DNA of 64,000 nt from Nanobdellota archaeon (GCA_038045825.1 JBBSXJ010000004.1:182185-246184); one strand, 5' to 3'; shown: positions 13,655 to 18,615, numbered from the stretch's first letter. Numbers and translations: made by a program. The notes: generated by a model from the letters alone, not told the origin.

Positions 13655-13705
13655 TTAATTAGCATACAAAGGACCTAATTCAAGGCCACCGATCTTTGCT
13701 TTCTT
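13655..13705 (-). repeat. orphan duplicate of the cdc48a 3' end (encodes [16 protein letters not shown])
   Basis: 43/51 nt identical to 16249-16299; all differences are synonymous except S>N. Confidence 0.9.
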
Positions 13706-13721
13706 AATAAGATGCAAAATG

Positions 13722-15863
13722 TTACTTTTTATCTTCTTTGTCTTTATTTGACAAAGGCTTGTTAATTGTTTTTGATACAATTTCTAAAGCAGTGTCAAAA
13801 TCGTGTTTTGTTATCTTTATTGACTCTTTTGTTTTACTAATATGTTGTCTTTTTATTGCTATTATCCCTGCGTTTCTGCATATTAATTCTATATCAGCAC
13901 CTGTGAATCCGTTTGTTTTATTGGCATAATCTTTGATTTGAATGTTCTTTTCAAGAGGCATTTTACTTGCATGGACTTCAAATATTTTCTCTCTTGTTTC
14001 TTTGTCAGGGATTTGAAGCTCGAGGATTGAATCAATTCTACCTGGTCTAAGAAGGGAAGGGTCAATAAGCTCTGGTCTATTTGTAGCTGCAATTACTACA
14101 ACATTTTCTAATTCTTCTATTCCATCCAGTTCTGTCAATAACTGATTTACTACTCTTTCTGTTGCATCTGAAAATGAGTGTCCTCTTATTCCTGAAATTG
14201 AGTCAAATTCATCAAAGAATATAATTGAAGGAGCTACTTGGCGAGCTTTTTTAAAAATTTCTCTTATATGTTTCTCACTTTCACCAACCCATTTACTTAT
14301 TAGTTCAGGCCCCTTTACTGAAATAAAATTAGCATTTGTCTCATTAGCAACTGCCTTCGCTAAAAGTGTTTTACCTGTTCCAGATGGACCTGACAATAAG
14401 ACTCCTTTAGATGGTTTTATTCCAGCTTCTATAAATAATTCTGGATGCAGAAGAGGGAGTTCTACTAATTCTCTTAATTTTTCTTTTTCTTTTGCTAAGC
14501 CTCCAACATCATTCCACCTAACATTTGGTTTTTGAATTAAAACTTCACGCATCGCAGAAGGTTCAACCTGTTTTAGTCCTTCTATAAAATGGTGTCTTGA
14601 AACTTTTATTTTGTCTAGTATTTGAACTGGAACTTTATCTTGTAGATTTTTGAGTTGTGCAAAATAAGGTTTTATAGATTTTAGAGCAGCTTCTTTACAT
14701 AATATTTCAATATCAGCACCTGTAAAGCCTATTGTTTTATTTGCCAATTCGTCAAGATTAATATCTTTGTCAAGGGGCATTCCTCTTGTGTGTATTTTTA
14801 ATATCTCTTTTCTTCCTCTTTCGTCTGGAGAGTTTATTTGTAACTCTCTGTCAAATCTTCCAGGTCTTCTTAAAGCTGAATCTATATCTTCAGGCCTATT
14901 TGTAGCTGCCATTACCACAACTTGTCCTCTTGATTTAAGACCGTCCATTGATGTTAGCAATTGAGCTACTATTCTTTTTTCTGTTTGGTCTGTTCCATCC
15001 CCTCTTTTAGGAGCAATTGAATCTATTTCGTCAATGAAAATAATAGATGGTGCGTTTTTTTCGGCAGATTCAAAAACCTCTCTTAAATGTTTTTCTGACT
15101 CACCGTAATATTTTGACATTATTTCTGGTCCTGCAATTGAAAAGAAAGAAGAGTCTGTTTCATTAGCAACTGCCTTAGCTAAAAGTGTTTTACCTGTTCC
15201 AGGAGGTCCTGTTAATAAGACTCCTTTAGGAGCACCAACGCCCAATTTTTGGAAAACTTCTGGGTGCTTCATTGGAAGTTCTACCATTTCTCTTATCAAT
15301 TCTATTTCATTATGCAACCCGCCAATATCTTCATAAGATATTCCTGTTGCCTTCAAATCTCCTGCGTAAGGTGTGTCTGAAACAATTATCTTCGTTTTTG
15401 AAGTAACTATTGAATATCCTTTAGGGTCCATTCTTGAGACTACATACTCAAGTCTTGTTCCGAATACATCAATTATTGTTTTTTGATTGATTGTTAATGG
15501 CTTATCTAATAATTTTGTATGGAAATATTCTGTTGGGTCGTCACTAAATCTTACTTCTTTTAACGGGGACAGGGTTACTGATTTAGTTGCTTGAACATTT
15601 GTTTTAGATATTGTTATTTCATCCCCTATTGAAGCCCCAATTACTGACCTAGTTGAACCATCTAATCTAATTATATTCTTTTCGTATTCAGAAGAGAGGC
15701 TTCTAAGAACTTTTACAACTGCTCTAGACTTGCCCTTTATTTCCACGATATCTCCTGAAACTATGTCTAATTTATTTAGATTTTCAGAGGAAATTCTAGC
15801 AATTCCTTTATCTATATCTTCCTGCAGAGCCTCTCCTATTTGGAGGGAAATTTTTTCAGTCAT
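13722..15863 (-). CDS. cdc48: CDC48/VAT AAA+ ATPase, second paralogue
   Basis: N-domain plus two AAA modules (GPPGTGKT and [13 protein letters not shown] and FDEFD; RPGR). Confidence 0.96.
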
Positions 15864-16240
15864 TTTTTATTAAATGTTACCTCTAATATACCATTTCTAA
15901 ATGTTTTCTTGAAATCTTTATTCTTTATTCCTTCTGGTATTTTTTCTCTTAAAGTTATTCCTTCTTTATGCTTTTGAGCCATATAATCCTGATTTTGCGA
16001 CTCTTTATTTGTTTTGGCCGTGATTACCATAAAATCATCTTTTAACTTTATTTCAATATCTTCTTCATTATATCCTGGTAGTTCTGTAATGAAATACACG
16101 TTGTTCTTTTCTTCTATAAATTCGGAGCTTTCTTCTTCACTTTCTCTTAATTTTCTTACCGGTCTTCTTCTAATATTATTGCCTCCAAAAAATTGGTTTA
16201 CAATATCTTCGAAAGGGTCATGGTCATCAAAAAAGCTCAT
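15860..16240 (-). CDS. Hsp20/alpha-crystallin small heat-shock protein
   Basis: ELPGYNEEDI and FRNGILEVTF motifs. Confidence 0.9.
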   Translation of the reverse strand: MSFFDDHDPFEDIVNQFFGGNNIRRRPVRKLRESEEESSEFIEEKNNVYFITELPGYNEEDIEIKLKDDFMVITAKTNKESQNQDYMAQKHKEGITLREKIPEGIKNKDFKKTFRNGILEVTFNKK

Positions 16241-16248
16241 TTTTTCTC

Positions 16249-18615
16249 CTAACTCGCATAAAGGGGTCCTAATTCAAGGCCACCAATCTTTGCTTTCTTA
16301 AGATAGTTTTCTTCTATCTTTTTGTAACGCTTTGCAGTGTCTTCTGAAACTGAAGGTTTCACTTTTGCTAGAGCTTCGTCGAATTCTACTAATGTAACTA
16401 CTTTGCTGTTTATGTTCTTTCTTAATGCTATAATTGCTGCTTCTCTAACAAAGTTTTCAATATCCGCACCTACAAAACCCTCTGTTTTCTTTACTAAGTA
16501 TTGTATTAGTTTTTCTTTATCAGACATTGTTGATATGTTTAGTTTTGAGTCTTTTACAAGATAATTATCTATTTCTTTCATTTCTTTTTCTGTTGGAGCA
16601 ATCGGCATTGGTTTTGTATGTATTTGCAATATCTTTTCTCTAGACTTTTCATTTGGAATATCTACAAGCAATATTCTGTCGAATCTACCAGGTCTCATAA
16701 GTGCTGCGTCTAACATATCAGGTCTATTTGTAGCACCTATAACTACAACGCTTTTTAGGTCTTCAATTCCATCCATTTCTGAGAGCATTTGATTTAGAAC
16801 TCTTTCAGTTACTTTTGAACCCATTTCCATTCCTCTCTTTCCTGCTAGAGCGTCTATTTCATCGAAGAATATTACACAAGGAGATACTTGTCTCGCTCTC
16901 TCGAATACTTTTCTAACTCCTTCTTCAGATTTACCGACCCACATACTTAGAAGGCTTGGACCTTTAATATTGATGAAGTTAGCTTCTGATTCTTTTGCTA
17001 CTGCTTTTGCTAAAAGTGTTTTACCTGTTCCAGGAGGACCGTACAATAATATTCCTCTTGGGGGTTTTATTCCCATTCTTTCAAAACTTTCTCTGTGTTT
17101 GATTGGCCACTCCACTGCTTCTTTCAATTCTTGTTTGATTGAATCTAGACCGCCGACATCATCCCAACTTATATTAGGAGTTTCTACTAGAACTTCTCTC
17201 ATTGCGCTAGGTCTTACAACTTTGAGAGCTCCTTCAAAGTCTTCTTTTCCTATGATCATTTTTTCTAATGCTTCTTGAGGAATTTCTTTATCTTCATCTA
17301 AATTTAAATCAGGCAAGGCTTTTCTTAGTACACACATAGCTGCTTCTTTTGCTAGAGATTCTAAGTCTGCTCCCACAAAACCGTGTGTTTTTCCTGCTAA
17401 TTCATCTAGATTAACATCTTTTTTCATTGGCATGGCACGAGTATGGATTTTTAGAATGTTTAATCTGCCCTTTTTATCTGGAACAGATATTTCTAATTCT
17501 CTGTCAAATCTTCCAGGTCTTCTTAAAGCTGGATCAATAGAATTAACTCTGTTAGTAGCTCCAATAACAATTACTTTTCCTCTTGCATTTAGACCATCCA
17601 TCATTGTTAATAATTGTGAAACAACTCTGCGTTCTACTTCTCCTTGAGTTTCTTCTCTTTTAGGAGCAATTGCATCTATTTCATCTACAAAAATAATACT
17701 TGGAGCGTTTTTTTCTGCTTCTTCAAATATGTCTCTAATTTTCTTTTCAGATTCTCCATAAAACTTAGACATTATTTCTGGACCGTTTAATAGAATAAAG
17801 TTAGCTTCTGATTCTGTAGCTACGGCTTTTGCTAAAAGTGTTTTACCTGTTCCTGGAGGACCATGTAATAGAACTCCTTTTGGAGGTTCAATTCCTAGAC
17901 GATCGAAAACTTCAGGATGTTTTAGAGGAAGTTCAACCATTTCTCTAATCTTTCTTATTTCTTCTGTTAATCCTCCTATATCTTCATAAGTTACTTCTGG
18001 AATTGTTTCTTCTTCTACATTTGTTGCTTTAGGATGAATTACTAATTCTGTATCTTCTGTAATTATTACTGATTGATTTGGAGTTGCTGAAACAATTTTA
18101 AATCTGATATTTTGGAAACCCATTCCACCTAGACCTCTTGAAAATAAGTCATGAAGGTCTTCAAATGCTTCTTGCATGTCTTGCATTAAGTCTTTTCTTC
18201 TTTGAGCTCCTCCTAATGAAACTAAATCTCCTTTCATTACTGAACGGCCCAAAAGTCCTGATTTGAATGCTTCAGGATCTCCTTGAACCATTATTCCTGC
18301 TTGTGCTGGAGCTATTGTTACTTTTTTAGCTGGTTTGACTTGAGCTTTCTTTATAGAAACTTTCTCTCCAATGCCTGTTTTAGCATTCTTTCTTGTTAGA
18401 CCATCTATTCTTATTATTCCCTCCCCTATATCTGCAGGGTATGATCTATCTACTATTGCTACTGTTTCTCTTTCTCCTTGAATAGAAACTATGTCTCCTC
18501 TGTTTAGACCTAGAGCGCGCATTACTTCTGTGTCAATTCTAGCAATTCCTTTATATGCGTCATCTTGCAAAGCCTCTAGGACTTTCAATTTGATTAATTT
18601 TGGTGCTTCAGCCAT
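16249..18615 (-). CDS. cdc48: CDC48/VAT AAA+ ATPase
   Basis: N-domain plus two AAA modules; C-terminus ends PLYAS. Confidence 0.97.

Follow-up and report, generated by a model that had tools for sequence, protein, structure and literature searches.

The cdc48b gene of the archaeon studied here is followed on the minus strand, 16 nt after its stop codon, by a sequence that repeats the end of the upstream gene cdc48a out of frame with cdc48b. We wondered whether this hidden tail is left over from recombination or is a C-terminus that some Cdc48b molecules receive by frameshifting. The initial annotation of the window, the 64,000-nt stretch of DNA analyzed as a whole, had offered both: that the hsp20-cdc48b block entered by recombination in the cdc48 3′ end, supplying a replacement tail and displacing the old one, and that +1 frameshifting equips part of the Cdc48b pool with a tail for docking to the 20S proteasome. 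We have good confidence that what lies behind cdc48b is a non-coding remnant of a cdc48a 3′ end, left there when two forms of the locus recombined.

Locus and comparison sets

The window belongs to an 836-kb metagenome-assembled genome of 16 contigs, labeled G000. Table 1 lists the features of the locus. The product of cdc48a is 95% (95.2%) identical to its G011 orthologue, and the end of hsp20 overlaps the start of cdc48b by 4 nt. The convergent gene is a presumed map, named by eye. Between 13722 and 16240 there are just two genes, hsp20 and cdc48b, and no integrase or other mobile-element gene. We call hsp20-cdc48b the cassette; the cassette-bearing form of the locus reads cdc48a-hsp20-cdc48b-map and the cassette-less form cdc48a-(small ORF)-map.

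Table 1 Features of the cdc48a-map locus (positions in the window).
Feature	Position	Strand	Description
cdc48a	18615→16249	-	Full Cdc48/VCP-type AAA ATPase, 788 aa; Pfam: CDC48_N, CDC48_2, two AAA + lid domains
Functional tail copy	16249..16302	-	Last 54 nt of cdc48a
hsp20	16240→15860	-	Small heat-shock protein, 126 aa; Pfam HSP20, E = 1.6e-10
cdc48b	15863→13722	-	Second Cdc48-type AAA ATPase (Pfam), 713 aa; Lys-rich end ...NKDKEDKK*
A5 run	13726..13730	-	Shortly before the cdc48b stop; deletion of a single A would bring the tail into frame with cdc48b
16-nt spacer	13706..13721	-	From the cdc48b stop to the first Lys codon of the relic
Relic of cdc48a 3′ end	13655..13711	-	In the cdc48b +1 frame; coding part after the spacer 13705→13655
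Polymorphic patch in relic	13667..13707	-	9 substitutions and a 3-nt deletion in X3, X5 and X6
ORF136	13192..13602	-	Small hydrophobic protein; only homologue in G003; not present in G014, G012 or the closest relatives
map (presumed)	12263..13195	+	Methionine aminopeptidase-like, convergent; conserved right-hand neighbor of the locus

A large protein search listed 118 Cdc48b orthologues (71-87% identity). The alignment of each genome's own cdc48a tail to the sequence behind its cdc48b covered 14 other cassette-bearing genomes (G108 has no sequence behind cdc48b), and a looser peptide scan of the forward frames behind cdc48b covered 21 other cdc48b-bearing genomes. The survey of gene context excluded G154 and G118, whose contigs are short; cdc48a tails and the distribution of the cassette were compared across 17 genomes of the genus. 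Four public runs from two studies (X1, X3, X5 and X6, with X1 perhaps the source sample) were examined as assembled contigs, a form of evidence in which rare variants are lost.

The tail copy is a genuine structure

The copy is present where the initial annotation had placed it, and the details it gave hold up. Positions 13705-13655 of the minus strand, 51 nt or 17 codons including the stop, agree with the end of this genome's cdc48a at 43 nt. Six of the eight differences are synonymous, one is a TAG/TAA stop swap and one is non-synonymous (AAT/AGT, N/S); the first 30 nt differ only once (ATC/ATT). The tail lies in the +1 frame of cdc48b. The 20 codons ahead of the cdc48b stop are open in that frame, and the resulting ORF (13780→13655) has just 41 codons, the upstream ones being cdc48b sequence read in +1; the relic has no in-frame coding region of its own upstream. 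When the 54-nt cdc48a end was aligned locally to the 400 nt behind cdc48b the score was 38, whereas 200 shuffles gave a mean of 8.5 and a maximum of 12, so the homology is beyond chance. These two are the only tail copies in the entire genome. Their 5′ ends are identical at 33 of 34 nt (97%), and their longest identical stretch is 17 nt. If a 3-nt indel is allowed, homology extends slightly upstream, through ATCTTA. The 3′ part of the spacer (ATCTTATT) is already relic sequence, which would place an illegitimate junction in the first half of the spacer.

Contigs spanning cdc48b, the tail and ORF136 were found in all four runs. The X1 contig shows 0 differences over 12800-14874, and the cdc48b stop and the frame offset are identical in every run. 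The tail copy is thus a genuine structure and no assembly quirk. An artefact would have to be either a contig chimera of two strains or a 1-nt homopolymer error splitting a cdc48b that truly carries the tail in frame. Such an origin could be imagined for a 16-contig metagenome-assembled genome in which the loss of one A from the A5 run would restore the fusion, but the contigs of the four runs cover 13706-13780, where the initial annotation had suggested looking for an indel that makes the tail the normal end of cdc48b, and their only indel is one of 3 nt at 13705. Moreover, the identical 713-aa Cdc48b occurs on four contigs of the protein collection, a Lys-rich end is normal for the family, and 17 identical nt in a row are presumably too few for a k-mer misjoin. 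We regard an artefact as almost certainly wrong.

Three of the four runs (X3, X5 and X6) carry a second allele of the relic, with 9 substitutions and a 3-nt deletion. The substitutions lie within 24 nt, a clustering that simple decay does not explain. They replace three residues, including a Gly and a Gly-Pro pair of the tail, and the Pro that is lost is present in every one of the genus's 17 cdc48a tails; the 3-nt indel leaves the reading frame, the stop codon and the terminal LYAN intact. When the second allele was searched by BLAST, neither the genome nor any of the loci yielded a source for the 24-nt patch, the best match being the tail of G004 (42/51). The window's allele, by comparison, encodes the genus consensus tail and is 3 of 54 nt from the tail of G011. 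The relic is therefore either young, or recently overwritten, or kept by selection.

The relic is unlikely to be translated with Cdc48b

The last of these options bears on the frameshift proposal, by which a few ribosomes would slip +1 within the last ~20 codons and give part of the Cdc48b pool a Cdc48a-type Tyr tail and access to the 20S proteasome, selection keeping the relic since it is used. Read in +1, the sequence does continue without a stop as far as the TAA of the tail; the tail that the window's allele encodes is a perfect consensus one, and the indel of the second allele respects frame, stop and LYAN. Two 20S proteasome genes (PF00227, above cut-off) are present in G000, where a PAN-like AAA protein was not found, and tRNA-Lys could conceivably re-pair one base on in the A5 run.

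However, all 118 listed orthologues end in a Lys-rich sequence, as that of G000 does, and none has a Tyr motif; nor does a tail-like peptide lie behind cdc48b in any of the 21 other cdc48b-bearing genomes, in any forward frame. The shifted-frame extension is thus conserved in 0/118 proteins and 0/21 loci. The openness of the +1 frame, which the initial annotation had expected to be kept in orthologues, ranges from 2 to 40 codons in 14 of them, ordinary for Lys-rich sequence, so that its length in G000 reflects composition. The commoner relic allele alters conserved residues of the very tail that would be used. The A5 run precedes AAG TAA, with no slow or rare codon after it, no Shine-Dalgarno-like element and no stimulator recognized, and the RNA fold is modest (z = -2.4) and without a defined structure; scans of 13400-14000 for RNA folds and bacterial-type promoters and terminators returned nothing that bears on the question. 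We know of no programmed +1 frameshift established in archaea. Most likely, then, Cdc48b is made without the relic, and we consider the frameshift proposal extremely unlikely; were it true, an sHsp-linked unfoldase could sometimes feed the 20S proteasome, and the window's allele would be the selected form.

Both tail copies end in L-Y-A-S or L-Y-A-N, with Tyr third from the end and Ala penultimate. As defined by Forouzan et al. 2012 (PMC3493965), the HbYX motif has Tyr or Phe in the penultimate position and, third from the end, a residue that is small or hydrophobic; by that definition neither copy is a canonical HbYX motif. The cdc48a copy stands at the C-terminus of an AAA ATPase and the hidden one, out of frame with cdc48b, does not. 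Cdc48a is presumed to be the proteasomal ATPase of this family, in which the Tyr of its tail lies third from the end, not penultimate.

The cassette is widespread and the second tail is not

Alignment of the own cdc48a tail to the sequence behind cdc48b gave scores of 7-12 in all 14 other genomes, within the range of shuffled sequence, compared with 38 in G000. G014 and G012 carry the same cassette in the same place, with the end of map directly behind cdc48b and no tail copy. The second tail copy is unique to G000 among the cassette-bearing relatives examined.

The cassette itself is found far more widely. The order cdc48a-hsp20-cdc48b occurs in 17 of the 23 cassette-bearing genomes examined, across many genera, and in this Pacearchaeota family cdc48a-hsp20-cdc48b-map is a long-established gene order. 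In 20 of 20 other genomes, and in G014 and G012 too, the gene immediately upstream of cdc48b is hsp20; the pair forms a conserved two-gene module, with Lys-rich tails on its Cdc48b proteins.

Within the genus, the interval between cdc48a and map is variable, and the complete cassette was found in only 3 of 17 genomes (G000, G012 and G014); the G006 contig stops in the start of hsp20, and G002 retains a 13-nt trace of that gene. In the nearest relatives by cdc48a (G011, 95.2%; G010 and G007, 94.5%; G013, 93.7%), map follows cdc48a in convergent orientation, and hsp20 and cdc48b are both missing. G000 is sister to these four in the cdc48a tree (SH-aLRT 100); the cdc48b tree groups it with G014, as housekeeping genes do, and does not conflict with the cdc48a tree. 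The cdc48b/cdc48a distance ratios and the two trees fit vertical descent and transfer of the cassette alike.

A homologue of ORF136 was found in G003 and in one 99%-identical metagenome contig, about 1 kb from the tail and with another gene between. Neither the sampled genomes nor the metagenome scan for ORF136 contained a cassette-less partner with ORF136 directly behind the tail, and no donor genome was found.

The relic resembles the cdc48a ends of cassette-less relatives

Over its last 54 nt the relic matches the cdc48a end of G011 at 51 positions and that of G008 at 50, but its own genome's at only 45. The last 21 nt are identical to those of G011 (21/21) and also without differences from G008. 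The genome's own cdc48a tail matches G011 at 32 of the first 33 nt and at 14 of the last 21 (7 differences). This points to a mosaic with a break after GAATTA, though the informative sites are few (about 10). Similarity between G011 and the relic continues weakly for ~10 nt past the stop.

The genome's own cdc48a ends in TAG followed by GAGAAAAAATG, the hsp20 start region, as in the hsp20-bearing G014 (one mismatch) and G012; TAG and a near-identical following motif also occur in G006, whose contig ends in the hsp20 start, and in G002, from which hsp20 is now missing. The relic ends in TAA, as do all other cassette-less genomes apart from G002. The initial annotation had predicted an LYAN tail on the cdc48a of relatives without the cassette, and the four nearest such species do end in ...YAN (LYAN in G011 and G007, IYAN in G010 and G013). 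By itself the last residue is not diagnostic, since cdc48a ends in ...YAN also in G014 and G012, which bear the cassette.

An ectopic copy made within the genome, by which template switching or repair would have placed ~57 nt of the cdc48a end behind cdc48b without a second genome, would account for the 97% identity of the 5′ 34 nt of the two copies. It fits poorly with the 3′ 21 nt, which differ at 7 sites from the own cdc48a and at none from G011 and G008, and with ORF136, which is foreign to G014 and G012 too and begins 52 nt behind the relic. We consider such a copy very unlikely as the whole explanation.

The relic might instead be old. Direct repeats that predate the split from G011, G007, G010 and G013 could have served as a deletion substrate, the sister clade losing hsp20-cdc48b between them while recombination restored one working hybrid tail. 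This would explain the patchy distribution of the cassette, including the hsp20 trace in G002 and the G006 contig that ends in the hsp20 start. The G011 tail does read as the 5′ part of the G000 cdc48a copy (32/33) joined to the 3′ part of the relic (21/21); the near-identical 5′ ends of the two copies and the weak similarity beyond the stop fit as well. But a relic evolving neutrally since that split should differ from G011 at roughly one-fifth of its sites or more, against the 3 of 54 observed; between the cdc48a genes of G000 and G011, 36% of four-fold sites differ. G014 and G012 lack the second repeat, and no contig joining the two tail copies is listed in the four runs, though contigs lose rare variants. 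An old relic is, in our judgment, distinctly improbable. Those joints that are listed in the runs are short-sided (22-37 nt), and other organisms are their probable source.

A probable exchange between two forms of the locus

Because the relic is closer to the cdc48a ends of cassette-less sister species than to its own cdc48a, recombination between the two forms is indicated, and the relic probably marks an exchange between a cassette-bearing and a cassette-less cdc48a-map locus. We infer both the mechanism and the direction of the event. The two forms co-exist in this Pacearchaeota genus. One junction would be homologous, or lie inside the conserved tail; at the other, the cdc48b 3′ flank would have been joined illegitimately to a site immediately before a cdc48a tail. 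The outcome would be a cdc48a that keeps a complete tail before hsp20, with a second tail and ORF136 behind cdc48b.

Given such a scar, there is not quite an even chance that the cassette re-entered a cassette-less ancestor by a Campbell-like crossover inside the tail. Import of the tail-ORF136 segment from a cassette-less congener into a cassette-bearing genome is a plausible, somewhat more doubtful route, and other routes, including an intragenomic copy, are rather unlikely. Either direction would fit, since the cassette arrangement is old and the cdc48b tree groups G000 with G014; for the same reasons a simple recent entry of the block is not needed. Of the original recombination proposal, a displaced cdc48a end at a recombination junction stands (51/54 with G011 compared with 45/54 with its own cdc48a), whereas entry of the block is not secure, given an order shared by 17 of 23 genomes and trees that do not conflict. 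The relic could equally have come with the right-hand tail-ORF136 segment or by re-entry of the cassette.

Read as a scar of this kind, the relic is clean and datable. It suggests that congeneric Pacearchaeota swap and reshuffle DNA at the cdc48a-map locus, and that the hsp20-cdc48b pair has been gained, lost or re-joined there. It is also a warning to annotators that cdc48b should not be “repaired” by a frameshift.

Comparison with known systems

Programmed +1 frameshifting is known from bacterial prfB, antizyme and the AAA-TAA sites of Euplotes. The end of cdc48b shares with these a run of Lys codons directly before the stop and an open +1 frame behind it, but unlike them it shows no conservation among orthologues and no recognized stimulatory element.

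As in the archaeal pairing of Cdc48 with the 20S proteasome through HbYX, cdc48a encodes a Cdc48-type ATPase whose C-terminal tail is conserved and contains a Tyr, and the genome has 20S genes, with no PAN found. Methanosarcina mazei CDC48-C lacks the motif, according to Forouzan et al. 2012 (PMC3493965), and the present genome likewise has one Cdc48 paralogue with a tail and one without. Unlike HbYX as that paper defines it (PMC3493965), Tyr here is third from the end (LYAS/LYAN; SYLG, SYFG and similar in other genera), and docking is a prediction.

The arrangement also resembles an attL/attR-type duplication, in that a gene block lies between direct repeats of a gene's final ~55 nt, the upstream repeat keeping that gene intact and the downstream one being an orphan. 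Integrative elements are known to duplicate the 3′ end of a target gene in this way, bringing a replacement end with them. In contrast to such elements, the block comprises only hsp20 and cdc48b, with no integrase or mobile-element gene, and in all 14 of the other genomes tested it stands without the second repeat.

Homology-facilitated illegitimate recombination and Campbell-type single crossover are general mechanisms of joining DNA. The parallel with them draws on about 10 informative sites, with no donor genome found: one end of the event would be homologous (cdc48a or its tail), and at the other the cdc48b 3′ flank would be joined to the beginning of the tail without homology. Together the two tail copies form a mosaic that fits a crossover after GAATTA.

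A second copy of the cdc48a 3′ end

Behind cdc48b, whose start overlaps hsp20 by 4 nt, lies a second copy of the cdc48a 3′ end, here called the hidden tail or relic. The initial annotation described it correctly: the two copies agree at 43/51 nt, with one of the eight differences non-synonymous and a single difference within the first 30 nt, and relative to cdc48b the copy reads in the +1 frame, which is open for 20 codons ahead of the stop. The match is far above chance (alignment score 38, against a maximum of 12 among 200 shuffles), and the whole genome (G000; 836 kb, 16 contigs) holds two such tails only. 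The relic is genuine but nothing unusual: recombination at this variable locus left behind an orphan copy of a gene end.

Features of the cdc48a-map locus (window coordinates)
Feature	Coordinates	Strand	Remarks
cdc48a	18615→16249	minus	788 aa; CDC48_N, CDC48_2, two AAA domains
hsp20	16240→15860	minus	
cdc48b	15863→13722	minus	713 aa; domain set as cdc48a; C-terminal end ...NKDKEDKK*
Spacer, cdc48b stop to hidden tail		minus	16 nt
Hidden tail (relic)	13705→13655	minus	
ORF136, small hydrophobic ORF	13602→13192	minus	
map	12263..13195	plus	convergent

Directly behind the relic (13603-13654), an A/T-rich, TATA-like box, TTTTAAAA, is seen by eye ~20-27 nt 5′ of the ORF136 start codon, a position consistent with a leaderless ORF136 transcript from its own promoter.

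The hidden tail is not part of Cdc48b

A large protein search with Cdc48b listed 119 other proteins, 118 of which are cdc48b orthologues (71-87% identity); P0063, with 1007 aa and 51% identity, was rejected as an orthologue. By the source names of these proteins, the organism belongs with the Pacearchaeota/Nanoarchaeota. All 118 have Lys-rich tails (e.g. ...KK, ...KKK) and none ends in a Tyr motif, and the Lys-rich ends mark the annotated cdc48b stop as typical of the family. In the congeneric genomes G014 and G012, cdc48a-hsp20-cdc48b occupies the corresponding site and the end of map lies directly behind cdc48b. When a genome's own cdc48a tail was compared with the 400 nt behind cdc48b, scores were 7-12, within the shuffle level, in 14/14 tested genomes bearing the hsp20-cdc48b pair (the cassette), and a looser peptide scan found no tail-like end behind cdc48b in 21/21 loci. 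Across 14 cassette-bearing genomes tested, the +1 frame ahead of the cdc48b stop stays open over anywhere from 2 to 40 codons, which makes the 20 of G000 ordinary for Lys-rich coding sequence.

Logan contigs, which drop rare variants, span 13706-13780 in four public sequencing runs from two studies (X1, X3, X5 and X6), and none has an indel in this interval that would join the tail to the cdc48b frame. Contigs of X1, possibly the source sample, match the window over 12800-14874 with 0 differences, and the sole indel in those of X3, X5 and X6 is a 3-nt one at 13705. The hidden tail is not part of Cdc48b.

The initial annotation had suggested that +1 ribosomal frameshifting supplies the tail to some Cdc48b. 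Only a +1 shift reaches it; a −1 shift enters a different short frame. At the A5 run (13726-13730) a tRNA-Lys could slip forward by one base and pair again, but the codon after this run is an ordinary AAG, a Shine-Dalgarno-like element is lacking, and the RNA fold of 13640-13790 beats its shuffles by only a modest margin (z = −2.4) and shows no defined structure. We regard frameshifting as very improbable because it is not conserved.

Two relic alleles

Between G000 and the congeneric G011, cdc48a has diverged at 14% of its nucleotides (31% at third positions, 36% at four-fold sites), and drift since their split would predict that ~1/5 of relic sites differ from the G011 tail. The window's relic allele, which still encodes the consensus tail, differs at 3/54, so it must be young, have been overwritten recently or be under selection. 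A second allele, found in X3, X5 and X6, carries nine substitutions (13667-13690) and the 3-nt deletion at 13705, all within 39 nt (13667-13707), while the flanks of these contigs are 0 to 1 site off the window over 1.3 kb of cdc48b and 0.75 kb of ORF136/map (in X3, for example, 1296 nt are exactly as in the window). The changes are thus a clustered patch rather than gradual decay; no source sequence for it was found. Frame, stop and the final LYAN are retained; the replacements affect the tail's first Gly and also its Gly-Pro pair, the Pro of which is kept in 17/17 genus tails. This damaged allele is the commoner one and thus counts against function; with 0/118 orthologues ending in Tyr and 0/21 loci with a tail-like end, it tells against frameshifting onto the tail.

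Origin of the tail

In this genus Cdc48a normally ends in KKAKIGGL[ED]LGP[LIV]YA[NS]. The nearest cdc48a genes by amino acid identity are those of G011 (95.2%), G010 and G007 (94.5%) and G013 (93.7%), where cdc48a is followed by convergent map without hsp20, cdc48b or ORF136, and the cdc48a tree places G000 as sister to these four (SH-aLRT 100). The relic matches the G011 tail at 51/54 nt, the G008 tail at 50/54 and its own cdc48a tail at 45/54. Compared with G011, the G000 cdc48a copy agrees at 32/33 of the first 33 nt and 14/21 of the last 21, where the relic agrees at 21/21. The cdc48a copy has a TAG stop followed by GAGAAAAAATG, as do the hsp20-bearing G012 and G014 (one mismatch in G014), and in G006 and G002 the stop is likewise TAG, with a nearly identical motif; TAA is the stop in the relic and in all remaining cassette-less genomes. 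Its identity to G011 and its TAA stop therefore mark the relic as a cdc48a end of the cassette-less kind, and the end now on cdc48a is of the hsp20-linked kind. The tail copies form a mosaic, with a break after GAATTA that rests on about ten informative sites.

The cdc48a-map interval varies between nearly all species of the genus, which is consistent with a recombination-prone spot. It holds a 50-aa hydrophobic ORF in G011 (L059:2474-2650), several genes in G003 (L061), G002 (L070) and G016, and 20 nt only in G010; in G002, though hsp20 is gone, the cdc48a-stop/hsp20-start junction survives as 13 nt (TAGGAGAAAAAAT). Inteins with LAGLIDADG homing-endonuclease domains are found in the first AAA domain of cdc48a in G003 (L061:2694-5834) and the second in G015 (L073:1761-5591), and intein homing could drive interspecies exchange of cdc48a DNA.

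History of the hsp20-cdc48b pair

The cdc48b N domain occurs in 24/201 genomes sampled from the order, all within the window's family (23/155 there without counting G000; 0/45 in other families). The context survey fetched 20/22 other holders, leaving out G154 and G118 with short contigs. In all 20 hsp20 lies directly upstream of cdc48b, making the pair, its genes often overlapping or adjacent and its Cdc48b tails Lys-rich throughout, a conserved two-gene module in 23/23 holders (window 13722-16240; L099-L118). cdc48a lies upstream of hsp20 in 14/20 fetched genomes and in 17/23 including G000, G014 and G012, so the arrangement is old; the pair is elsewhere in five of the 20, one is interrupted by a contig end, and map is a frequent convergent right-hand neighbour. 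The three genus cassettes are about equidistant pairwise (cdc48b 84.8-86.2%, hsp20 54-60%), and in the cdc48b tree G000 pairs with G014, in line with housekeeping genes.

The initial annotation had ascribed the tail to recombination upon entry of the hsp20-cdc48b block. Its recombination origin, from a cassette-less-type cdc48a end, holds, but given the old order, the equidistance and the cdc48b tree, a simple recent arrival of a foreign block need not be invoked. Three scenarios account for the data about as well as one another: cassette loss in the sister clade; cassette re-entry into a cassette-less ancestor, with a crossover inside the tail; or acquisition of a tail-ORF136 segment from a congener lacking the cassette, joined illegitimately on its left side. 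Neither a donor nor a partner structure was found. ORF136 has a single homologue (74% aa), present in G003 and in a metagenome contig 99% identical to it, and there about 1 kb separates it from the tail.

Cdc48a and the proteasome

Two 20S proteasome genes are present in G000, and a PF00004 search of this genome (89.6% complete) gave Cdc48a and Cdc48b as the only strong classical AAA matches and no PAN-like protein; Cdc48a is therefore likely its proteasomal ATPase. Forouzan et al. 2012 (PMC3493965) define the canonical HbYX motif by a penultimate Tyr/Phe, preceded at the third-last position by a small or hydrophobic residue. The Cdc48a tail is not such a motif: its Tyr occupies the third-last position, in LYAN or LYAS in the genus and SYLG, SYFG or SYTG in other genera (window 16249-16260; L059-L118). 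That paper also shows an archaeon in which some Cdc48 paralogues carry the motif and others lack it, the same situation as in G000.
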